In this document: one piece after another, positions 1,449 to 14,695 of the stretch
How positions within the stretch are numbered: the first letter of the stretch is position 1
Layout: each line of letters opens with the position of its first letter
Sequence record: PQ511146.1
Strand: one strand, 5' to 3'
Length of the DNA stretch: 64,000 nucleotides
DNA from: Escherichia phage NHEP1
Translations under genes and position numbers: made by a program
The notes under the pieces: model-generated
The model's input: only the letters and a program-made list of their open reading frames with translations
Told to the model about the DNA's origin: nothing
The model's database searches: none

Positions 1449-1919
1449 TTACTGTCCAATTTTAAAGGTTGCAGATTCAAGCAGCACATCGTAATGCCGC
1501 ATAGCCTCGTTGAAGCCCTTCTCTTGTGCCCACTGCTCACTAACAGTAGGGTTACTAAACTGACCAGCCTCAATAACAAACTGGATAGCTTTGGCCCCTG
1601 TGTCCCCCATCTGCCTAAGAACAGCCTCTGCACTTGATCCTCTAGCCATAGCTCTCAACAATTTTTCTGTCAAGGTCTGTAGTTGCGTGCTGTGAAATGC
1701 AAAGGCCGTCTCCATGAAATTGCGAACAGGCAGCCCGTTCCAACCGAAGTTGTGAATAGCTGCCAATGTTGCCATATTTAAGCCTGACGGGTGAGGTTCA
1801 TCATAAAAGCCGTAGGTTATTGTTTTGCTTTCAAGTTTCACAAGGTCTTTATAAAAGCGATCTAAACGCTTTAGGTTGAACCTTGTTTGACATTTAACCT
1901 TTAGCATTATATTCCTCAC
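1449..1919 (-). CDS. head completion / connector module protein (hypothetical)
   Basis: 156-aa ORF in morphogenesis block; start may be internal (M5). Confidence 0.4.
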   Translation of the reverse strand: MRNIMLKVKCQTRFNLKRLDRFYKDLVKLESKTITYGFYDEPHPSGLNMATLAAIHNFGWNGLPVRNFMETAFAFHSTQLQTLTEKLLRAMARGSSAEAVLRQMGDTGAKAIQFVIEAGQFSNPTVSEQWAQEKGFNEAMRHYDVLLESATFKIGQ

Positions 1920-2640: not shown

Positions 2641-3495
2641 TTATGCCAGTGCAGCCTCAAAATCTTTCATCATATTTTGGAAAGTTTTTGCCTTACTTAA
2701 GGTAACACCGTGCTCTTTAGCGAAGGTTTGTAGTGCATCTTTCGAACCACTCTTGTCATCTTCGTTGTTAAGAGCTGCGGCTTGCTGCAGTATGGCATCA
2801 ACATCGCCGTGAGAAGATCTTGATTCTTGTGCCTGTTCAGGATCCTGCTCAGTACCTTCCGTACCCTCAGGTGCGGTCGGACCTGGTGATTCCTCACTGC
2901 CACCACCAGGTTCAGTAGGGCCTACAGGTGGCTCCGGCTCTGGTTCAGGTTCTGGGGCTACTGTAGAAGTCAGCCCAAGATTTACAACCTGAGAACGTTT
3001 CTTAGGCCACTCAATGGTGAAAGTCTGGGTATCTTCTGCATAAGCAACATCGCATTGCTCATCGTTTATGGTCACTTTTTTGGGCATCCCTTCAGGGTCC
3101 CACAGATGACCTTCTGCCACTGAAACTTTGAAAGCGGCATCTACCTCTTTAAACACTGACGGGGTGAGTGTGATATTGACATCACCGCTTTGCAGTGTTA
3201 AAGTGCTTTCATCAAGGTTCTCTGTGAAGAACAGAAGAATAACACCCATACGGATAGTTGAAATACCAGTATCAATTGGCAGGCCTGTATGTTTTGCAAT
3301 CTTCTCGAAGAAGTCTACAATCGTTCTGCACGGATAGTGAACCCTGCCAATAACGAATTCTGTTGGTGGCAGCAGGGCTGATAAACCAACATTGATTTCT
3401 GGATTATATTGTGCTAAAAATTGATAAAAACTTAACTGATTGTTGAAAACTCTTAATAGAGGATCATACTCAACTGGATATACGGCTCTCTTCAC
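2641..3495 (-). CDS. structural protein with (PE)n low-complexity linker
   Basis: 284-aa ORF immediately downstream of the capsid gene; PEPEPEPEPP linker then Gly/Glu-rich segment. Confidence 0.4.
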   Translation of the reverse strand: MKRAVYPVEYDPLLRVFNNQLSFYQFLAQYNPEINVGLSALLPPTEFVIGRVHYPCRTIVDFFEKIAKHTGLPIDTGISTIRMGVILLFFTENLDESTLTLQSGDVNITLTPSVFKEVDAAFKVSVAEGHLWDPEGMPKKVTINDEQCDVAYAEDTQTFTIEWPKKRSQVVNLGLTSTVAPEPEPEPEPPVGPTEPGGGSEESPGPTAPEGTEGTEQDPEQAQESRSSHGDVDAILQQAAALNNEDDKSGSKDALQTFAKEHGVTLSKAKTFQNMMKDFEAALA

Positions 3496-4636: not shown

Positions 4637-5023
4637 TTATTCACCAACAGTTTGGACGTGAACTTTGTTACCAAGGGCCTCAAGCTTGTCTAACACAGCC
4701 TGTGCTGCTTTAGCTCCATCTGCACCTAACAGCATGTCTTTTGCAAAGGTAACACCGTGAACGGCAACAACCAGGTTATAGGATTGACCAACTTCTAACG
4801 GTTTTGCAAGATGAACCGTACCAGCATCTTTGACAAGAGCACGGTCAACAAGAACGCCGTACACATCAGAACCGTCTGCGTTAGCGATGGTCCCAGTTTT
4901 TGTTACAACAGTACCAGCGTGGTGATGCTCTGTCAGTGTTACCTTGATTTCTTTAAAATTGTAGCCAGCATCGCTAGAATCAACTTTGCCGAGCACGATA
5001 TCAGAATATTGAGCGGTAATCAT
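4637..5023 (-). CDS. head decoration / accessory capsid protein candidate
   Basis: 128-aa ORF directly upstream of the capsid gene (position of lambda D); no sequence-level support. Confidence 0.35.
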   Translation of the reverse strand: MITAQYSDIVLGKVDSSDAGYNFKEIKVTLTEHHHAGTVVTKTGTIANADGSDVYGVLVDRALVKDAGTVHLAKPLEVGQSYNLVVAVHGVTFAKDMLLGADGAKAAQAVLDKLEALGNKVHVQTVGE

Positions 5024-5043
5024 TTATTTCCCCCGTTAATGTC

Positions 5044-6021
5044 TTATTTGGTAGATTCTGCACGTGCACGAGCAAGTGCTTTTGCAACGTTTTCAGCAAG
5101 AATTTCTTCTGCGGATTTTGCAATATCATCCACAACAGGTTCGCCATCATTACCATGTTCAGTGGTGGCAAACTCTTCTTTGGTTTTATGCACCTCTGCT
5201 TCCAGCTCTTTAATTTTGGCTTGAGCTTTCTCCAGCATAGCTACGATAGGTTCGTTAGCTTTTTCCAGCATGAAGTCAACCAGGGTTGCATGATCTTCTT
5301 CACCAACAAAGCTTAAAGCTTGAGCTTTAGCCAGCATTTTAGCTTTTTCAACTTCAACCTGGGCCTTGATGATTTCTTCAGCTTTACTCTGGGTTGCTTT
5401 CAGCTCTTCTACTTGCTTCAGCAGATCCAGATACTCTTTAGTTTTGGTTACGTCCACCGGATTCTCCTCGGTATTTGCGGATTTTGCAACATCATCCACC
5501 TCGGTAGTTTTATCCACCTCAGTAGGTTCCTGTACCGCCTTGATCAGGTTCCCTTCTTTATCGAAGAGATCAGCGGTTACTTGTTCAAAAATCTGTTGTG
5601 TTTTTAACAGGCTGTACTGATCTACCACGCTAAGCTGCTTGCCTTCTTTTGCAGCTTTATGAATGGTCACGTTATCACAACGCTCTTCCAGCCATGCAAT
5701 GCAAGACTCTGCGTCAGCTTGCGCCCATTCCCAATCAGGATGCTCTTTAGCCCAAGCTTCCTCTTCAATCTCAAAACCAAGCATGTGTGCAAGTGCCTTG
5801 GCATCGTCATACCACATATCGAAGAAACGACGCAGGTATTCTTCAAAACTCAGCTCCACAGTAACTTGGCGAAGTGCCTTAACAATATCGTCTGTTAACT
5901 GCTCAGGCTGAAGATCACTCTTCATCAAAAGAGATACAGGTCTGTTGTTAGCGCTATAGCCTTGCGCCTTATGGCACAGGGCAATCCCCTTCTCTTTAAT
6001 AGTGATTGTTTTTTCAGACAT
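5044..6021 (-). CDS. capsid scaffolding protein
   Basis: 325-aa acidic protein with long predicted coiled coil (EELKATQSKAEEIIKAQVEVEKAKMLAKAQ) between portal and capsid genes. Confidence 0.5.
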   Translation of the reverse strand: MSEKTITIKEKGIALCHKAQGYSANNRPVSLLMKSDLQPEQLTDDIVKALRQVTVELSFEEYLRRFFDMWYDDAKALAHMLGFEIEEEAWAKEHPDWEWAQADAESCIAWLEERCDNVTIHKAAKEGKQLSVVDQYSLLKTQQIFEQVTADLFDKEGNLIKAVQEPTEVDKTTEVDDVAKSANTEENPVDVTKTKEYLDLLKQVEELKATQSKAEEIIKAQVEVEKAKMLAKAQALSFVGEEDHATLVDFMLEKANEPIVAMLEKAQAKIKELEAEVHKTKEEFATTEHGNDGEPVVDDIAKSAEEILAENVAKALARARAESTK

Positions 6022-6440
6022 TATTCATTGCCCTCTTCTACAACACTGATCCCGAAATTTACGTTGGTAATTTCGCCCGTCTCTTCATCAACATTGCCTG
6101 TTGCCTGAATGCTTAGGCCACCAACAATGCCAGCCTTCTTAGCTTCCCATAATTCAGGATTATTGTATTTAACTTTAGCAACCCAAGAGCCAGCCTTGAT
6201 GACCTGCTCAGTACCAATTACTACAACATCAAACTCTTCTTGAATCCACGTCTTTTCAATAGTGAAAGCATCCGTAGAGGTCAAGTGGAAAAGGTTTTCA
6301 GAAACTAGGCCTGCGGCGTATGCTGCGTCCCAATTATCTTTAGCCTTTTTGATGGTGTCTTTACTCATCCACTCACCGTGAGCGTCTTTAGTGTCCGGTT
6401 CGTAGATGATTTCGTAGGAAATCATTTCTTCCTGTGGCAT
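6021..6440 (-). CDS. head morphogenesis protein (possible prohead protease)
   Basis: ORF 6021-6596 trimmed to internal ATG (6438-6440) to clear the portal stop at 6508; sits between portal and scaffold. Function inferred from position only. Confidence 0.3.
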   Translation of the reverse strand: MPQEEMISYEIIYEPDTKDAHGEWMSKDTIKKAKDNWDAAYAAGLVSENLFHLTSTDAFTIEKTWIQEEFDVVVIGTEQVIKAGSWVAKVKYNNPELWEAKKAGIVGGLSIQATGNVDEETGEITNVNFGISVVEEGNE

Positions 6441-6507: not shown

Positions 6508-8064
6508 TTAATTTTCCATATTGGATATGGAATTATCTCTGGTTGATGACATCTTAGAAGTGCCGTTGCCAGTGGATCCTGCAGCCATACCATCACCAGC
6601 CCTGCTGATATCCTGGCCTAAAAGCTTCATCAGCTCTTCTTGATCCATGTCTTCGTCAAATCTTTCATCAAACCCGCCTACTTCAAGAATCTTATTAATT
6701 ACTGCAGGAGTTTTTGGCAAGTAACCTACAGCACCGATCCTCTGGACAAACTTGGAGAAGCTCTCCATGTCCACTTCTTCAATCAGACCAGGTTTCAGTT
6801 TAGGCATATCATCATCTTCAAGGATGATACCATTCAATGCCAGAAGCTGTGGAATAAGATCTTTATTGAAGGCCTCAGTGATAATATCTATATCACGCTG
6901 AACAAAATGCCCATGGATGGATTGTTTTGACTCAGACAGAGAGAAGGACCCAACGTTATCGTTACCAAGGTTAATAAAGCCAGCACCGAAACGGTCAAGA
7001 ATCGCCTTCTTACGGGCATCAATCAAATCTTTAGTGGAATACTGCTTACCCATACCATCAACCCCCTTCAGGGTCATGGAGTAAAGCTCTTTACCAGACT
7101 TATCTCTATCAGACGGAAGTATAAAGAAACTTTGCTCCCCACTATGGGCGTTTGCTGCGTCCAACATAAGATCTGCAACCATTCTCCCTTCCATCGAATT
7201 CGGGTCAATGCTGGCCTTGTTCAAAATATTGGAAGGAATTTTCAGCTCAAGCACACCACCAAGGTCTTTGGAGCAGCCAACAACCTCAAGGTTTTCAATC
7301 AAAACTTTCTCACGGAAAGATCTGTAGCAACCTATCATCGGTGACACACCTGCAGGATTAGATTCTGTTCCTGACAGAGTCATGAGCATAAGCTTTTTAG
7401 CAGGGATGAAAATTTCAGGCTCATTAAAGCCTTTTGAAGGCATTGCAGCGAGAGGTCCAGCCCAGCGTGCATTCTGAGTGTTTAGAAATGCATTAGGTGA
7501 CTGATAAATACCTGTCAGTGTTCTGCTATTCTTGTCAAAGACAAACGGCTCTGATCTGGACAAACTGGCCTGTGGTCGGAATGCAATTTTATCAATAAGA
7601 AGCATCCCGGCATATTTACCTTCTTTCTCTCTGCGGTATACTTTCTCAAACAGTGAAAAACCATACTCGTTAAAGGTAGCTGCGCTTCTTGCAATATCTC
7701 GAAGAGTTTGTTGGTTTGCCAAATTACGCAAAGAATACTCTATAAGCTCGGCGGCTTTCTTAGAGTCTTCACTTTTAACATTATAAAGGATCTTAAAATC
7801 ATTGAATGCTTTCGTGATGAAAACATATTTTGTATCTAAGGCAGTAGCAACTGTGGAATCACATTTCATAGTCTCCACTGTGGCAATCAGCTGAGGCCAA
7901 CGCAATTCCTCAACCATCATAGATTGTGATTCTGCCATAATTTGGGAAAGTGCGCCAGAACCGATCTCACTCATACGAACATTATGAGTTGGTGCGCCTG
8001 CGTTCCCAGATTTATTCACAGTTTTGGCTGTGGCGTTGTGTTTCCTGCGGTTCTTTTTGGACAC
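6508..8064 (-). CDS. portal protein
   Basis: 518-aa ORF immediately downstream of large terminase; size and position typical of portal. No motif check possible. Confidence 0.6.
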   Translation of the reverse strand: MSKKNRRKHNATAKTVNKSGNAGAPTHNVRMSEIGSGALSQIMAESQSMMVEELRWPQLIATVETMKCDSTVATALDTKYVFITKAFNDFKILYNVKSEDSKKAAELIEYSLRNLANQQTLRDIARSAATFNEYGFSLFEKVYRREKEGKYAGMLLIDKIAFRPQASLSRSEPFVFDKNSRTLTGIYQSPNAFLNTQNARWAGPLAAMPSKGFNEPEIFIPAKKLMLMTLSGTESNPAGVSPMIGCYRSFREKVLIENLEVVGCSKDLGGVLELKIPSNILNKASIDPNSMEGRMVADLMLDAANAHSGEQSFFILPSDRDKSGKELYSMTLKGVDGMGKQYSTKDLIDARKKAILDRFGAGFINLGNDNVGSFSLSESKQSIHGHFVQRDIDIITEAFNKDLIPQLLALNGIILEDDDMPKLKPGLIEEVDMESFSKFVQRIGAVGYLPKTPAVINKILEVGGFDERFDEDMDQEELMKLLGQDISRAGDGMAAGSTGNGTSKMSSTRDNSISNMEN

Positions 8065-8166
8065 AAGCTTTACCCCTCAAAACAGTATAACAAAATAGCC
8101 CTCGTGTTAGAGGGCCAGTATCTCCGATTACTCTATTCTACCACATCTAATTAAGATTGGCAACAC

Positions 8167-9714
8167 TTAGATAAAACGCTTGAACATAGAAGGTGATGAG
8201 ATTGATGGAATCACACAAGGCAGCGCTACCTCCTCTTTCTCCAGGAAATTAATCGCAGAAGCTACACAGTCGGCCCAGTCGTCTTTTCTGTTAAATGTTG
8301 ATCTTTCCCCGTTGAACTTTTCAAGTTCAGTTAGAAATGCTTCCAGAGTGTCAGGATGGAAACTGGATTTTACAATCCTCACCATTCCTTGTTGGGCAAG
8401 ATTGGCAAAGGGTGAGAACCTTGTCAGTTTAGATTTGTTGGAAGGCATTGGATCTTCTTCAACCCTGAACCCTTCGGCGAGCAAGGATCTGGACGAGGTT
8501 AAGAACTCACTCTTACCTGCCTGACCGGGGTCCACAGAAAATACGATTATGCAATCATCTCCATCAAACTGCGCCTGTTTCCTGATGATCACATCTCGTT
8601 CCCCAGCCTTTTTACAGAACTTTCCTTCCAGACCTGTGGAATACCTACCGTCATCCACGTTCTCAGGACAATAATCCCCGGACAGGTAATAAAAGCCGTC
8701 GCTATCTTTACTTACCTTAACACTGGCGGTAAAGTCAGGAAATTTATTACCGGAAGTTCTCTCGGTTCCTGCTTTATCCCATGCCCTGCAAGATACTGAT
8801 CCAAGAGGTACTCTATCGGCATCACGAAGGAAAGATCTTTGGAAATAGTTTGCACCCTCAGGTTTGGCAAACCAGTTGCCATGAAGAAGCTGGGCTTTTT
8901 CAAGCTCGGGTAGACCTTCAAGGAAAGCAAGGTATTCTGGGTTGTCTCTCAAGCAGACAGGATTATCGAAAATTGTTGCGCCTATAAACGAGAATGACAA
9001 CGGTCTTGGCTTGATCTCCACACCCAGTCCGTTAACCGTGGTGTATTTCTCTATTAACTCCTCTTTAGAGTCTCCCCAGATAAACTCACCGTCGCGTCGG
9101 ATAAAATATCTTTTCTTACCACATTTCTCCGGGTCTGGATACCCTTCATCGTCCAACCACCACCTAACCAGTTTGGCAAGCATGTGTTCTGAGTCGGGGT
9201 TACAGCTGATAACCATTCTTGATGGATACTTTGACTGAGATCGCAGACGAGACATCAAATAGTCTATCTGCTCCCATTCGAATTGCGTGCCTTCATCGAA
9301 GCAAACCATGGTGTACTCAAGGCCTTGATGGTTAAGCTTATCTTGGACATACTCCATGTGGCAGTATTTTACAACGGCCCCTTTTTTGCTCCTGTCCCAC
9401 TTGCCAGTGCTCGGATCAAACCGTGGAAAAATAAACTTATGATCCTTCTCTCTGAACTTTGGTTTAATGTTTTCAGGCAGATCACTGTAAATAGCTACTG
9501 CTTTAGGCCATAGACCACCCTCACCTTCCAACTGTGGAGTTGTTCTTCGGAACATAACCACAGAGCTGTGCGGGTCATCAATAATTTTAAGCGGCATTAG
9601 CTGCAAGAGGAACGACTTGCCAGACCCAGCTGCACCTCCGATCACCAAAATATCTGCATCGTTCTCTAGGATCATCTTCTGCTTTTCAGAACACGGTCCG
9701 TAAATCTTAGACAT
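8167..9714 (-). CDS. terminase large subunit
   Basis: 515 aa; N-terminal Walker A ILVIGGAAGSGKSF; size and placement ahead of portal. Confidence 0.85.
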   Translation of the reverse strand: MSKIYGPCSEKQKMILENDADILVIGGAAGSGKSFLLQLMPLKIIDDPHSSVVMFRRTTPQLEGEGGLWPKAVAIYSDLPENIKPKFREKDHKFIFPRFDPSTGKWDRSKKGAVVKYCHMEYVQDKLNHQGLEYTMVCFDEGTQFEWEQIDYLMSRLRSQSKYPSRMVISCNPDSEHMLAKLVRWWLDDEGYPDPEKCGKKRYFIRRDGEFIWGDSKEELIEKYTTVNGLGVEIKPRPLSFSFIGATIFDNPVCLRDNPEYLAFLEGLPELEKAQLLHGNWFAKPEGANYFQRSFLRDADRVPLGSVSCRAWDKAGTERTSGNKFPDFTASVKVSKDSDGFYYLSGDYCPENVDDGRYSTGLEGKFCKKAGERDVIIRKQAQFDGDDCIIVFSVDPGQAGKSEFLTSSRSLLAEGFRVEEDPMPSNKSKLTRFSPFANLAQQGMVRIVKSSFHPDTLEAFLTELEKFNGERSTFNRKDDWADCVASAINFLEKEEVALPCVIPSISSPSMFKRFI

Positions 9715-11057: not shown

Positions 11058-11063
11058 AAAAGG

Positions 11064-11160
11064 TGCTAGGTGATGGAATCGAACCACCTATGTATTCAAC
11101 GACTACCTCGTCTATTTTCAGGATTAAAAATCCTCGCCCTTGCCAAAGGGCTTACCTAGC
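11064..11160 (-). tRNA. atypical tRNA-like gene (anticodon-loop-like UUUUUAA, possible tRNA-Lys-UUU variant or pseudogene) with about 30-nt extra region
   Basis: Good acceptor (GCTAGGT/ACCTAGC), D arm (GCCC-TTTGGCAA-GGGC) and T arm (GGTGG-TTCGATT-CCATC), but only a 4-bp anticodon stem (AGGA/TCCT), 97 nt long, no encoded CCA. Confidence 0.4.
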
Positions 11161-11463: not shown

Positions 11464-11551
11464 TGGTGGTGAGTGATGGAGTCGAACCACCCGAATCGCA
11501 ATGATAACAGATTTACAGTCTGCCCCGCTACCCCTACGGAATTAACTCACC
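11464..11551 (-). tRNA. tRNA-Tyr (anticodon GUA), class II
   Basis: Acceptor GGTGAGT/ACTCACC, anticodon stem-loop GCAGA-CTGTAAA-TCTGT (as in E. coli tRNA-Tyr), T arm GGTGG-TTCGACT-CCATC, CCA; D arm could not be cleanly folded by hand. Confidence 0.7.
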
Positions 11552-11681
11552 TAAATACTAATATTTAAATTCTTTTTAAAATAGCTAGTGTTCTAACCAC
11601 TAACTATGAGGTATCGGTAAAGTGGTTACCGCCACTTGCCGAAGATTTACTCTGCTAAAGTAAGCTACATTAAAAAGAACT

Positions 11682-11756
11682 TGGCACCCCGTACTGGACT
11701 CGAACCAGTGTCAACGGCTTAGAAGGCCGCTGCTTTATCCACTAAGCTAACAGGGC
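11682..11756 (-). tRNA. tRNA-Arg (anticodon UCU)
   Basis: Acceptor GCCCTGT/ACGGGGT (two wobble pairs), D arm GCTT-AGTGGATA-AAGC, anticodon stem GCGGC/GCCGT with loop CTTCTAA, T arm ACTGG-TTCGAGT-CCAGT, CCA. Confidence 0.75.
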
Positions 11757-11852
11757 ACTGGGTGGCTTTCTTTTACACCTGAGCCGCCAGAAAAGGTGGG
11801 AGACCATGTTTATAATATTACACTGTTAGGCAAAGTTTGTCAAGAAAATATT

Positions 11853-12191
11853 TTAACTATTGCCAACAGGCTGTATTTCTGTGGTAAATGGCATAAAAGG
11901 TGCTGGTTTTTCAGCCTCTTCCACTACCACCTCTTCCTCTTCACCAAACATCTCATCATATTCTTCCTGCATTCGGTCTGCCTTATCAAGAACATACTCT
12001 GCAATGCTTTGACGAATATTTTGTTTGGTTTTCGGGTCCAACATCAGCTCTCTTAAAACTTTGTGAGCTTCTGGAACCATCGCTATAAAAGATTCCTTCA
12101 TATCAAGAATGTTCTTCTCTAGCTGAATGGCGTTGGACTCCTCTTTCAGAGGTCTGCCTCTACGGCGACGCTTTTTAGTTGTATCCGCCAT
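11853..12191 (-). CDS. hypothetical protein with basic AT-hook-like N-terminus (KKRRRRGRP) and acidic C-terminus
   Basis: ORF 11853-12311 trimmed to ATG at 12189-12191 (MADTTKK...) with GGAGG RBS; the longer start would overlap its own promoter. Confidence 0.5.
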   Translation of the reverse strand: MADTTKKRRRRGRPLKEESNAIQLEKNILDMKESFIAMVPEAHKVLRELMLDPKTKQNIRQSIAEYVLDKADRMQEEYDEMFGEEEEVVVEEAEKPAPFMPFTTEIQPVGNS

Positions 12192-12219
12192 GTTTCCTCC
12201 ATTATCACGTGATAGGTGG

Positions 12220-12248
12220 ATTTTATCACGGCAAATACTGATTGTCAA
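12220..12248 (-). promoter_or_regulatory. sigma70-like promoter with palindromic operator
   Basis: Minus strand TTGACA (12243-12248) N17 TAAAAT (12220-12225), followed by perfect palindrome ATCACGTGAT (plus 12204-12213) before the RBS. Confidence 0.5.
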
Positions 12249-12536
12249 GTTCGCCGCAGGGTGGTATTCCCTGCGACTTGCCCAGCGTCCTGGACCAGCA
12301 AGACCCAACAAGTGGGTTACCAGATACCCATTACCGCGCTCTGGCTCGACCTTATTACAGGTTGGCTGGGGTCACATCGTCATGTGCTGGCTGCCCCTAC
12401 CATTTTAAGTGTGGTGCACTATCAAGCCCTCTAAGGGGAACTCAGCCTTCTCCGAACCCTGTTTCAAAGCATCCGGAGATAAAGCCATCAAACTCATCTT
12501 TAAATTGGATATTCATCATGATACACGAAAACAACC

Positions 12537-12779
12537 TCATTGTAAAGCACAAATAAATAAAACATACTTAATTTGTTTGTTATCAGGCTCAGGGTAGAAG
12601 TAGAAGATCTTGCTATCACCGATCTGAACACCACCATCCCAACAGCATAACCCATAACCAGTATTCATACAAGCTAAGTCGTTGGCAAAATCTATTGCAT
12701 CATCTAGTGCACGAAATTCACCTTCATCTTCTAAATAATCCTCATTCATGGAACGGAAAACGAGCTTAACCTTAAACAT
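12537..12779 (-). CDS. hypothetical protein
   Basis: 80-aa minus-strand ORF, acidic; no motif. Confidence 0.4.
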   Translation of the reverse strand: MFKVKLVFRSMNEDYLEDEGEFRALDDAIDFANDLACMNTGYGLCCWDGGVQIGDSKIFYFYPEPDNKQIKYVLFICALQ

Positions 12780-12855
12780 AGCATTACCTGTAGACCTCGT
12801 AAGTTAAAATTGTATCACATCATATTGCAGATCTTATCAGGTAACATTATTTTTG

Positions 12856-13044
12856 TCAACAGATTCCGGCCTTATCCCTCCTGTCTGCGTATTCTTTAAT
12901 CGCAACCTCACCTGCATTGGTAACCAGATCTTCAAAGTAATTCTCAAGCTCCTCGTCAATGTCCGGTGACCAGCTCTTTTTCCTGTCAGTGTGAATTGCA
13001 GACTTGTTGAACTTATTACAATTCTTTGCTACCGGATTGTTCAT
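12856..13044 (-). CDS. hypothetical protein
   Basis: 62-aa minus-strand ORF. Confidence 0.35.
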   Translation of the reverse strand: MNNPVAKNCNKFNKSAIHTDRKKSWSPDIDEELENYFEDLVTNAGEVAIKEYADRRDKAGIC

Positions 13045-13054
13045 TAAGCTCTCC

Positions 13055-13633
13055 TCAACGTTCGTAGTAAATCTTATTCAACATTACCTCATCGTTTGCA
13101 GAAAGGATATCAAGATATGCATCACCAAATCTGCCTGCAACAACCTCTGCATGATACATCACTTCGTTAACATCGTCAAGAGTGATAACCGGATGACCAT
13201 ATCTTTCTGAATATTGTCTCAGTGTGCGATGTAACGAGTCGTCATCATATGCAGACTTTTTAATATCACAAACACGACGAATGGCCTTGATGTCGAAAAA
13301 ACCTGTGCGATACCACCCAAGAAAAAAGTTCCGTGTAGTGTCAACATCTACATCAATACCATTAAGAACCTTATCTACAAGATAGCTGTCATCCTTTGGA
13401 CTAGCGTCCTTAGTGCGAATGTAGTTGCCATCTTTTCCAGGTGATAGCTCCTTCTCATCACCAACCTGCATGCCATCATTTGGCGGTGTTAGCCACTTAT
13501 CAGGATGCTTACGATCACGAGCGTTAGAATGATTACGCTGGAAACCTGGCTTCCACTTGAAAGTTTTCTCCATCTGTTCTTCATTCTGATAACGTTTTGC
13601 AATCTTTTCACTGGCATCTTTGCGTGAACTCAT
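13055..13633 (-). CDS. hypothetical protein
   Basis: 192-aa minus-strand ORF with AGGAG near start; no motif recognised. Confidence 0.5.
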   Translation of the reverse strand: MSSRKDASEKIAKRYQNEEQMEKTFKWKPGFQRNHSNARDRKHPDKWLTPPNDGMQVGDEKELSPGKDGNYIRTKDASPKDDSYLVDKVLNGIDVDVDTTRNFFLGWYRTGFFDIKAIRRVCDIKKSAYDDDSLHRTLRQYSERYGHPVITLDDVNEVMYHAEVVAGRFGDAYLDILSANDEVMLNKIYYER

Positions 13634-13740
13634 AGCAGACTCCTCTTCAAGTTATAGAAAAACTCACTGTATCGCTTTGTAACGAGCTTTTCTATCAAAC
13701 TGGTGCGATTGCCTTACTTGGTATAGTTTATATAGCTGTG

Positions 13741-13990
13741 GAGCGATTTAGGGGCCTTCTTGTCAGTTTCCACACATAAACTTTATCCGAACTCGCGCGG
13801 GAGGCTCTCAACCGACTCCTTCCGGCGCTGGCAAGCTTTCGTCGGTGGTCCACATTAGTGCTCGGCCTTTGGCCTGCGCTATCGCTTCGCTCCCACACAT
13901 GTTAACAGTCCTGCATGTATGCACTTCTGTTATTGTGTGCACTATGGAGGCCCGGCATCTCGCCCCTCGTAGGCGAGTGCCAATGAAGGG
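13741..13990. other. GC-rich ORF-free island (candidate structured RNA or eroded gene)
   Basis: About 250 bp visibly GC-enriched in an AT-rich genome, no ORF of 60 aa or more in any frame; nested hairpins such as GGCCC...CTCGCC-CCTCGTA-GGCGAG...GGGCC. Confidence 0.3.
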
Positions 13991-14141
13991 CCGACACTAC
14001 CCATGATAAGTAATAAATTTAAAACATGGTACTTAGGATCTAGTATATTCTACATAAGTTAAGTATATGTACTTTAGTACCATAAGTACTAGATCTTTTA
14101 TTTTTTTTTATTATTTAGTTATTTTAGTTATATTCTTTATG

Positions 14142-14224
14142 TGTCCGTATCACGGACAGTTAGTGTCCGTATTACGGGCAGATGTGTCCGCGTGACGGAC
14201 AGTGGTGTCCGTATCACGGACAGT
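14142..14224. repeat. four-copy array of 18-bp palindromic iterons (TGTCCGTATCACGGACAG family)
   Basis: Copies at 14142-14159, 14165-14182, 14186-14203, 14207-14224 (first and last identical, two with 2-3 substitutions); each an inverted repeat; AT-rich tract 14095-14140 upstream. Confidence 0.8.
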
Positions 14225-14297
14225 TACTAACCTCTGTGCCATAGTGAACATAAAACATACAAATCCTTATAGTACAGATGTTTAAGTTTTTACTGGT

Positions 14298-14648
14298 CTA
14301 ACCAGTTGTTGACATTCGAATAACTTCTTCTGGTGGCAAAACTTTGGAAAATGTGCATCTTTTACCTCTCCCTTGTGTGGATATTTCAACCACTCCTGCA
14401 CATTCTAAAGTTTTAACGCACGCTGCTGCTTTTGTTTTCTTTATCCCAACATCTGCTGCAATTTTCCTTGTGCTGGGTGTGAAGCGTGAATTTTCTCCAA
14501 GCTTATACCAGTTGTGCAGGTAGCAGTATACAATCTTGTCATATAAGTCAAGAACAACAACCTCCCCAGTCGTGTCATTCAAAACTTTTGACATAGACAG
14601 TATTTCAAGGGGGACTTTAAGATATAGCAGCTTATCCCCATCTTTCAT
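14298..14648 (-). CDS. putative DNA-binding protein (helix-turn-helix)
   Basis: 116 aa; HTH-like segment TRKIAADVGIKKTKAAACVKTLECAGVV; gene ends 74 nt from the iteron array. Confidence 0.4.
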   Translation of the reverse strand: MKDGDKLLYLKVPLEILSMSKVLNDTTGEVVVLDLYDKIVYCYLHNWYKLGENSRFTPSTRKIAADVGIKKTKAAACVKTLECAGVVEISTQGRGKRCTFSKVLPPEEVIRMSTTG

Positions 14649-14695
14649 ATCTTCTGATTCTCCTTGTGTGGCAATTTTCTTTAAAATAGCAGGGA

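Follow-up and report, generated by a model that had tools for sequence, protein, structure and literature searches.

The genome of Escherichia phage NHEP1 (sequence record PQ511146.1) contains, within the 64,000-nucleotide stretch that was analysed here (henceforth 'the window'), a GC-rich segment at positions 13741-13990 that harbors nested inverted repeats and that lies in the gap between two phage genes. What such a segment might be, and what it might do, are the questions that the locus raises; an initial annotation, made from the letters of the window, had proposed a structured leader of the neighbouring gene at 13055-13633, a non-coding RNA (ncRNA), or the remnant of an inserted element. 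Comparison with related phages and with a group of small Escherichia coli plasmids demonstrated that the segment (hereafter 'the island') is conserved, evolves under purifying selection and shares its hairpin modules with those plasmids, and that its stems have changed by compensated substitutions. The island is a selected, modular element that folds within one strand, most likely the + strand. Our answer to the question of its role is more tentative: the reading that we prefer, while holding it at well below even confidence, is that of an accessory element that flanks a replication origin and acts in single-stranded form, in the manner of a priming or loading signal.

Conserved sequence and compensated stems of the island

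The initial description of the segment as GC-rich, devoid of open reading frames (ORFs) of 60 or more codons, and folded into nested stems proved accurate in each respect. The GC content of 200-nucleotide windows across 13700-13999 is 0.54-0.58, against values of about 0.40 (0.31-0.45 in the flanks), and that of the island as a whole is 0.562, as compared with 0.427 for the entire window. No start-to-stop ORF of at least 60 amino acids overlaps 13741-13990, the largest being of 56 amino acids (13728-13898, - strand) and 53 amino acids (13845-14006, + strand); a + frame that is free of stops for 84 codons (13752-14003) offers its first start codon only at 13845. Homology sets the ends of the island at ATTTAGGGG (13746) and GGGCCGAC (13996), limits that nearly coincide with those originally given. 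The surrounding non-coding gap is 664 nucleotides in length (13634-14297) and is bordered by two - strand genes, one encoding a protein of 192 amino acids (13055-13633) and the other a winged-helix protein of 116 amino acids (14298-14648); the island lies 113-363 nucleotides upstream of the start codon of the former (13633), beyond a separately conserved block at 13634-13745. No second copy of the island is present in the window, and a search of 13741-13990 for direct repeats of at least 20 nucleotides, as in a CRISPR array or a type III toxin-antitoxin RNA, returned no repeat family, the sole recurring motif being a linker of 5-8 nucleotides. The element and its parts are as follows.

13746-13996, + strand: the island as a whole, a hairpin-cassette element that every Vequintavirus genome conserves and that 13-kb E. 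coli plasmids share in part
13746-13794, + strand: variable 5' cassette, opening with ATTTAGGGG (a motif that recurs within the plasmid arrays) and carrying the first C/A linker, CCACACA, at 13770-13776
13795-13856, + strand: module A, with helix P1 (13809-13816 / 13841-13848), a 24-nucleotide loop at 13817-13840 (TCCTTCCGGCGCTGGCAAGCTTTC) and the end linker TCCACAT
13857-13899, + strand: hairpin cassette AGTGC-tc-GGCC-TTT-GGCC-t-GCGCT, followed by the linker CCCACACA at 13892-13899
13900-13945, + strand: hairpin cassette with the stem TAACAG (13903-13908) / CTGTTA (13927-13932) and an inner TGCA/TGCA
13946-13996, + strand: module B, containing the nested hairpin of the initial annotation, with compensated pairs relative to plasmid NZ_CP020521 and with the right recombination junction of contig L005 at its end

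The window belongs to a Vequintavirus genome, and the 2 kb around the island are 96-99% identical to about 118 genomes of Vequintavirus (rV5/FV3-like) coliphages, and the island occupies one locus in all of those approximately 118 genomes. (Eighteen GenBank records labelled 'Campylobacter phage' and marked UNVERIFIED are Vequintavirus genomes with 90-96% identity to the window, and are probably mislabelled or contaminants.) In more divergent relatives the identity of the island is 85% (L005, a vequinta-like contig of 83% identity), 93% (Aya) and 94% (L077), as compared with 66%, 80% and 80%, respectively, at the third codon positions of the adjacent 192-amino-acid gene, the identity of modules A and B being 92-98%. 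The island therefore changes two to three times more slowly than the third codon positions of its neighbour, which argues that it is under purifying selection. Sites that vary within the genus are concentrated in 13746-13794 and 13900-13946 (in phage A135, an 18-nucleotide deletion shortens the 13900-13945 cassette), and the cassette at 13857-13899 is almost invariant.

The strongest evidence for selection on folding was provided by comparison of the phage and plasmid copies of the modules. The two types of module A display eight fixed differences, all eight of which fall within the 16 columns of helix P1 out of 61 (hypergeometric probability about 4e-6), and three pairs of that helix are fully compensated (A-T to C-G, C-G to T-A, and A-T to G-C); in the 24-nucleotide loop and its flanks there is no consensus difference between phage and plasmid, the within-genus variants being C/A at 13822 and G>T at 13830 (L077). 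Module B, when aligned to its counterpart in plasmid NZ_CP020521, contributes two compensated G-C to T-A pairs, with 100% of cells paired, such that the phage and plasmid copies together display five compensated pairs and no disruptive change. Five compensated pairs in combination with identical loops indicate that pairing within one strand is selected, and compensatory changes, which the initial annotation had named as a sign by which genuine structure could be recognised, were thus found. Additional compensated pairs exist among the plasmid cassettes themselves (TTTAGCT/AGCTAAA to TTAAGCT/AGCTTAA, and GTCAC/GTGAC to GTGCT/AGCAC).

Folding energy by itself is only moderately unusual. The nested hairpin (13949-13992), in which GGCCC (13949-13953) pairs with GGGCC (13988-13992) and encloses GGCA/TGCC and then CTCGCC (13959-13964) / GGCGAG (13972-13977) around a 7-nucleotide loop, has a predicted energy of -28.6 kcal/mol (z = -3.25, a stability reached by one shuffled sequence out of 200), and the fold of 13700-14010 gives z = -3.14 on the + strand (0 of 100 shuffles) and z = -1.58 on the - strand, or -2.1 and -1.7 with DNA parameters; module A on the - strand gives z = +1.0. 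Shuffle controls for folding selection were only moderately strong (5/500 and 33/500), and variation within the genus is too small for RNAalifold to be informative. The 5' segment of module A, GCGCGGGAGG, may pair with 13818-13828 as a pseudoknot; that candidate helix (13795-13804 with 13818-13828) is not backed by covariation, and the common C/A variant at 13822 weakens it.

A scan of the window against Rfam 15 at gathering thresholds returned tRNAs and no family at the island. A permissive scan of 11500-14400 produced only a chance match to rli43 (18.7 bits, versus a gathering threshold of 100) lying mostly over the neighbouring AT-rich tract and repeats (13946-14195), and a permissive scan of the plasmid array yielded nothing relevant. 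The proposal of a structured RNA thus found no counterpart among curated families, while the part of it that concerned a structured, conserved and non-coding element was supported by comparison.

That the segment might instead encode a small protein, either the 56-amino-acid product that the rV5 reference, like several other records, annotates as ORF 78, or the 53-amino-acid + strand ORF, is extremely improbable. Variable sites in rV5 ORF 78 (rv5_gp074; window 13728-13898, - strand) are distributed over the first, second and third codon positions as 13, 16 and 17, which is to say without codon-position bias; phage naam carries a stop at its second codon; L005 carries frameshifts and stops; the plasmid copy of module B has a one-nucleotide insertion in its loop; and the substitutions track base pairing rather than codons. 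The annotation of ORF 78 is probably spurious, and its correction (rV5 ORF 78 is probably no gene) is a practical consequence of the analysis.

Hairpin arrays shared with small plasmids

The sole homologues of the island outside the genus were found in circular E. coli plasmids of approximately 13.2-13.9 kb, those with homologous modules being NZ_CP020521, NZ_CP035869, CP148565, CP134895, NZ_CP178698 and NZ_CP043822, and in three metagenome contigs. (NZ_CP043822.1, or L006, which is 39.6 kb in length, is a head-to-tail trimer of a unit of approximately 13.5 kb, one copy of which is deleted in the capsid/baseplate region.) In nine plasmid and metagenome copies, an unannotated array of 450-620 nucleotides is located between the promoter of the rep operon and the iterons, on the same side of the iterons and with the same polarity as in the phage. 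Each array is built of short hairpins or hairpin triplets that are followed by a linker composed only of C and A (consensus CCCACACA), and most are closed by a terminator-like hairpin, GCCTAAAGAG..CTCTTTAGGC-TTTCATTT (11-bp stem, z = -4.8).

Viewed alongside those arrays, the phage island is a shorter mosaic, comprising the ATTTAGGGG motif, module A, a hairpin with CCCACACA, the TAACAG/CTGTTA hairpin and module B. Its cassette at 13857-13899 has the same position as the plasmid cassette TGTGGGCC...GGACCCACACA, and the outer stem of the cassette at 13900-13945 recurs in plasmids L002 and L032 (as TAAACAG/CTGTTAT) with another interior; module B was found in one plasmid only, and in module A of plasmids L033 and L052 the P1 hairpin has given way to other sequence. 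Cassette content and order vary among otherwise similar plasmids, and in L033 (about 2440-2500) and L052 (about 8885-8950) one three-hairpin cassette is inverted (TTC loops and TGTGTGG linkers) and lies beyond the terminator-like hairpin, adjoining the iterons. Apart from the hairpin modules, the phage window and the plasmids have no significant similarity at the DNA level; a 35-nucleotide match between NZ_CP020521.1 (L007) and window 2791-2825 falls inside a coding region and was treated as chance. The three C/A linkers of the island form a pattern that is convincing only jointly with the plasmid arrays, the enrichment of CCACA in the island alone being weak (P = 0.003 per 250 nucleotides, corresponding to 0.7 such windows expected by chance in 64 kb).

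The island was found at 0 places on the chromosomes of 5,426 E. coli genomes, and a search for it in other genera of the Vequintavirinae by way of the flanking proteins led no further, the 116- and 192-amino-acid proteins both being genus-restricted. A scan of viral contigs for an exact 20-mer recovered a vequinta-like contig and a single chance match, the latter within a tape-measure gene (L004), and an exact 19-mer in genome contigs returned 19 matches in unrelated, mostly environmental bacterial genomes and metagenome-assembled genomes (0 in Enterobacteriaceae) that were not read individually and were taken as chance. A gapped pattern of module A located 59 loci in metagenomes, six of which are real (three vequinta-like and three in 13-kb elements), and a scan of viral contigs for three CCACACA linkers gave upwards of 120 loci, all of them unrelated and lacking homology to the cassettes.

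The notion of an inserted remnant is therefore to be divided. The island is indeed a modular, horizontally exchanged mosaic that is held in common with another mobile element, while its purifying selection and the absence of decay do not correspond to a remnant. A related and highly unlikely alternative is that palindromic cassettes without a phage function are spread as passengers by recombination at CCACACA linkers: the cassette shuffling and inversion among close plasmids, the GC content of 0.56 in a phage of 0.43, and the fact that both ends of the island are recombination junctions are all compatible with it, but a passenger would not be expected to occupy one locus in every genome of the genus, to evolve two to three times more slowly than synonymous-like sites, to keep its loops invariant across a divergence that altered half of the P1 stem positions, or to be absent from the chromosomes surveyed. 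Repetitive extragenic palindromic (REP) sequences and the bacterial interspersed mosaic elements (BIMEs) that they form resemble the island as GC-rich arrays of imperfect palindromes that occur in non-coding DNA in either orientation, and REPs can stabilise mRNA or serve as gyrase sites; they differ in that they constitute one family with hundreds of chromosomal copies, whereas the island cassettes are mutually unrelated and only the 7-8-nucleotide linker recurs. On those grounds, together with the chromosomal count and the single copy in the window, an assignment of the island to REP/BIME sequences was rejected.

The plasmids also carry phage-like genes, including those for a capsid protein, a tape measure (25% identity to rV5 gp049), a 267-amino-acid protein (50% identity to rV5 gp048, the tail tube initiator) and a 152-amino-acid tail-completion protein (44% identity to the window ORF at 1449-1919); none of their annotated genes codes for a terminase, portal, primase or helicase. 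In NZ_CP020521.1 the rV5-like tail genes are located at 4903-5706, 5703-6161 and 6664-8784, with counterparts at window 1449-1919 and at 43133-46459 of L216. The plasmids may accordingly be either relatives of the Vequintaviruses or their candidate satellites. In known pairs of satellite and helper (the cos site of P4 and P2, and the cos or pac sites of phage-inducible chromosomal islands), a non-coding segment is likewise nearly the only DNA common to a large phage and a small element, and the plasmids, like those satellites, lack packaging genes while carrying diverged phage structural genes (three rV5-like tail proteins of 25-50% identity). The island differs in being selected for hairpins and in lying at a candidate origin rather than beside terminase genes, and the helper-satellite relation is itself a candidate one.

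These same observations bear on the very unlikely possibility that the island is a double-stranded protein site common to helper and satellite, such as the pac site of the Vequintavirus terminase, a gyrase site or a partition-type site, with the C/A octamers and loops as contacts. Such a site could account for the modules being the only significant nucleotide similarity between the phage and plasmids that have rV5-like tail genes without terminase or portal genes; Vequintaviruses package by headful from a pac site that is unmapped (PMC8407724, PMC13211470), and the terminase gene is about 4 kb from the island. A duplex site has no need for compensated stems, however, and yet all five of the substituted pairs are compensated; moreover, the confinement of module B to one plasmid, the replacement of P1 in L033 and L052, and the weak CCACA enrichment of the island all argue against it.

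The origin-like module beside the island

The features that adjoin the island are the following.

13055-13633, - strand: 192-amino-acid gene, function not assigned (phrog_12226), genus-restricted except for one 50%-identical homologue without the island
13634-13745, - strand: conserved block upstream of that gene, with 12-bp inverted repeats at 13654-13665 / 13684-13695
13997-14130: AT-rich tract (GC 0.31), a candidate DNA-unwinding element
14141-14226: four dyad repeats of 21-22 bp (TGTCCGTATCACGGACA), candidate iterons, annotated as repeat_region in several phage records
14298-14648, - strand: 116-amino-acid winged-helix protein (HTH_36 / DUF6945), of a PHROG annotated 'replication initiation protein'

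To the right of the island, the sequence features that characterise an origin of the lambda type are present at 13997-14230, in the form of four repeats with 21-22-bp spacing, a tract with GC of 0.31 and an adjacent protein with an HTH_36 domain. The copy number of the dyad repeat ranges from two to six among phages of the genus, and the 116-amino-acid protein, which is annotated as a transcriptional regulator or as a replication initiation protein depending on the record, is distantly homologous to the N-terminal domain of the Rep-like proteins that the plasmids encode. The resemblance to lambda has its limits, in that the initiator gene does not contain the repeats and encodes a protein of only 116 amino acids, and no helicase-loader homologue is present; nor does lambda offer a counterpart of the hairpin island beyond its single 28-bp palindrome. 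The cumulative GC skew of the window reaches its minimum at 14-16 kb. In the original description of rV5 the origin could not be defined, and a change of skew was placed at a distance that corresponds to about 1.8 kb from this locus (PMC3606486). A search of the literature on the genus found no transcriptome, origin mapping or satellite report.

Contig L005 proved to be particularly informative. It retains the 192-amino-acid gene, the block upstream of it and the island; its homology to the window breaks exactly at 13996 and returns at 14686, and between those points its T-rich tract, its repeats and its gene for a 143-amino-acid winged-helix-turn-helix (wHTH) protein (27% identity to the 116-amino-acid protein of the window) all differ from their counterparts in the window. 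Alternative repeat sets with cognate wHTH genes thus occur at the same locus (14141-14226 in the window and 2200-2340 in L005), a difference that, as judged from sequence, looks like a swap of initiator and iteron specificity. Since the island is retained across that swap, it is independent of initiator specificity, yet it stays beside the initiator module, and the adjacency to an initiator, iterons and an AT-rich tract is found in both phage and plasmid hosts.

On the other side of the island, the block at 13634-13745 is probably the 192-amino-acid gene's own 5' untranslated region (UTR), and is apart from the island. Its inverted repeat (13654-13665 / 13684-13695), probably a UTR hairpin of that gene or an operator, pairs in full (with one G-U) on the - strand only, and is located just upstream of the ribosome-binding site of the gene.

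Strand, chemical form and possible role

Several features of the arrays point to the + strand, opposite to the 192-amino-acid gene. The linkers are composed only of C and A on that strand, and T-rich tracts follow the arrays in that direction. In addition, 13 of the 22 perfect short hairpins in the arrays are closed by triloops, seven of them of the form GNA and not one of the form TNC; in DNA, C-GNA-G triloops have exceptional stability, and single-stranded DNA origins contain them. Other tests of strand were equivocal. The z-scores of the plasmid arrays are equal on both strands, and the G-U content of predicted folds is uninformative because the linkers become G/U-rich on the opposite strand and pair promiscuously there; changes that would leave a wobble pair on the + strand only are 13857 A>G (L005) and the outer T-G pairs of helix P1 in the plasmids. 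With respect to chemical form, the dominance of triloops and the lack of a convincing conserved + strand promoter lean toward DNA hairpins, and the terminator-like ends lean toward a transcript.

This strand evidence bears directly on the unlikely alternative that the island acts as a - strand structure within an early polycistronic mRNA, running from the wHTH gene and rV5 promoter P76 to the 192-amino-acid gene, as a stabiliser, a processing site or a leader. All of the flanking genes are on the - strand, with no - strand terminator from 14298 to 13633, so that the island is probably transcribed in this direction; Watson-Crick helices fold equally on either strand; two substitutions on one side of a stem yield G-U pairs on the - strand alone; and the island is linked to the 192-amino-acid gene in L005 as well. 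The more specific claim that the segment is a structured leader of the 13055-13633 gene was nonetheless not borne out, because on another phage contig a homologue of the gene with 50% identity (P0006) is preceded by a gap of only 59 nucleotides and by no island, the plasmid array is not upstream of a gene on the same strand, and the asymmetry of the element favours the + strand. No - strand promoter feeds the plasmid array, and the rep operon's own promoter lies between that array and the first gene. The linkers, when read on the - strand, would be prone to promiscuous pairing; the GNA asymmetry and T-tracts favour the other strand; the - strand fold is weak, both overall and in module A; and the 192-amino-acid gene already has a conserved UTR hairpin of its own at 13654-13695.

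A more serious alternative, possible and nearly as likely as the interpretation that we favour, is that the island specifies a discrete + strand ncRNA of about 270-380 nucleotides, antisense to the early operon. Such an RNA would start near 13725-13746 and end at an AT hairpin followed by nine T residues (about 14110); it would form a chain of hairpins that are insulated from each other by unstructured C/A linkers and whose loops bind protein or RNA, and the plasmid arrays would be longer versions of it. In the window, a 12-bp + strand AT hairpin (14035-14046 / 14086-14097) followed by TTTTATTTTTTTTT at 14097-14110 resembles an intrinsic terminator, and a hairpin with a T-tract follows the last module in three independent contexts, namely the window (14035-14110), L005 (CCTTC..GAAGG and a T-rich run) and the plasmids. 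Linkers of C and A, which are found on the + strand only, would be expected to prevent misfolding of the modules; the RNA fold is stronger on the + strand (z = -3.1, versus -1.6 on the other); and conserved loops with co-varying stems are typical of functional RNAs. Most of the genus has an extended -10 element (TGgTATAGT, 13709-13717), and the plasmids have a weak TTGTCA-16-AATTAT. That candidate promoter is not kept in Aya or L005, however, and the plasmid promoter scores only 9/12; neither the island nor the plasmid array has an Rfam family; the short hairpins mostly have triloops rather than tetraloops; an inverted plasmid cassette located past the terminator-like hairpin would be odd for an RNA module; and the literature search found no transcript data.

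Structured transcripts are well known near origins, and include the ColE1 RNA II primer, the R-loop RNAs of T4 oriF and oriG, and the lambda oop RNA. The island resembles these in being a structured non-coding region that adjoins, or is directed to, an origin (here a candidate one) and that ends with a hairpin and T-tract; it differs in that its terminator-like signal precedes the AT-rich tract and iterons, so that an RNA would not reach the origin, and in having neither a conserved promoter nor an Rfam match. Three more specific proposals were rejected. A CsrA sponge was discounted on the basis of three GGA motifs in about 250 nucleotides, where about four are expected by chance; DnaA boxes, on the basis of linkers that lack the T-rich half of the box; and pairing of the module A loop with the Shine-Dalgarno sequence of the 192-amino-acid gene, on the basis of its lack of conservation in naam-type phages.

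In the reading that we tentatively prefer, the island is the left flank of a lambda-like origin module consisting of the AT-rich tract, the four dyad iterons and the small gene for a wHTH initiator-like protein. The initiator would open the AT-rich tract, whereupon the adjoining + strand, which would be the leading-strand template of a leftward fork, would fold into hairpins; the invariant loops of modules A and B would then be read by a priming or helicase-loading activity, for which host DnaG or PriA, or a phage gp4-like primase-helicase, are candidates; and that activity would also serve the plasmids of approximately 13.5 kb, in which the modules recur with matching polarity next to the plasmid iterons. 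A primase-helicase of the gp4 type is encoded by rV5 (PMC3606486), and the fact that the plasmids have no annotated primase or helicase was counted in favour of this scheme.

Such an element would have its paradigm in the single-strand initiation (ssi) signals that adjoin plasmid origins, for example that of R1. Sites of this kind for priming or primosome assembly include the G4-type ssi downstream of R1 oriR and the phiX174-type n' sites of ColE1. The likeness, drawn at the level of description, consists in clusters of strand-specific hairpins beside an origin (a candidate one in the present case) with iterons and an AT-rich tract, on the template for the leading strand that moves away from the origin, and in short and very stable hairpins whose function depends on how a single strand of DNA folds. 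That the hairpins are strand-specific and under selection to fold is indicated here by five compensated pairs and by the + strand asymmetry of loops and linkers, with mixed results from single-substitution tests of strand. Differences from known ssi signals include the greater length and modularity of the island, its C/A octamer linkers and the shuffling of its cassettes, as well as its presence in a 137-kb lytic myovirus with a primase-helicase of its own; a priming role for the island is a proposal.

A number of observations weigh against this origin-associated interpretation. The module at 14000-14230 is a candidate origin by its sequence features; the GC-skew minimum coincides with a switch in the direction of transcription; and the likeness to ssi sites is one to their general description. 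The island of rV5 itself contains no GNA triloops, all of which reside in plasmid-only cassettes. Each array closes with a + strand hairpin and then a T-rich tract (strongly so in the plasmids, with the 11-bp stem noted above), and such ends would be expected of a transcription unit and are not needed by an ssi site. Strand tests that compare G-T with A-C pairs are contradictory, with 13846 T>C (Aya and L005) and 13856 T>C (naam) leaving a wobble pair on the - strand only, and the changes listed above leaving one on the + strand only. Finally, all five compensated pairs derive from the single split between phage and plasmid, and so represent few independent events.

A broader and doubtful extension of the argument is that the island and the plasmid arrays constitute an undescribed class of cis-acting element, in which unrelated hairpin cassettes are punctuated by a C/A-only octamer and in which a family of plasmid-borne satellites (of approximately 13.5 kb) would mimic the origin-flanking modules A and B of their helpers, virulent rV5-like myoviruses, and thereby capture the helper's replisome or another helper factor that reads the loops. 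If that were true, it would amount to a new E. coli system of satellite and helper, in which hijacking takes place at a structured nucleic-acid signal.

Independent of that extension, the locus is of interest in several respects. Vequintaviruses are widely used as therapeutic and biocontrol coliphages, and their replication origin has never been defined; the locus provides a concrete candidate. The element lies outside every curated RNA family and nonetheless bears the signature of a folded nucleic acid, in its compensated stems and invariant loops. The plasmid relatives, with their diverged rV5 tail genes, point to a link between a virulent myovirus and a plasmid, whether of helper and satellite or of common descent, and the structured signal that they share could be a point of exploitation.

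Two further features of the window were noted to the left of the island. A tRNA cluster is located 2 kb away in that direction, and within it the segment at 11062-11160 (- strand) is tRNA-like, with a four-base anticodon (atcc) assigned by ARAGORN and a weak Rfam tRNA score of 35.5 bits; it could be a frameshift-suppressor-like or intron-containing tRNA gene. A 'first' GC-rich island lacking ORFs, at 12191-12441, has a GC content of 0.50-0.535, matches no Rfam family and does not resemble the 13-kb plasmids; with respect to the - strand, it is situated upstream of a promoter close to consensus (TTGACA-17-TAAAAT, 12248 to 12220) that corresponds to P74 of rV5.

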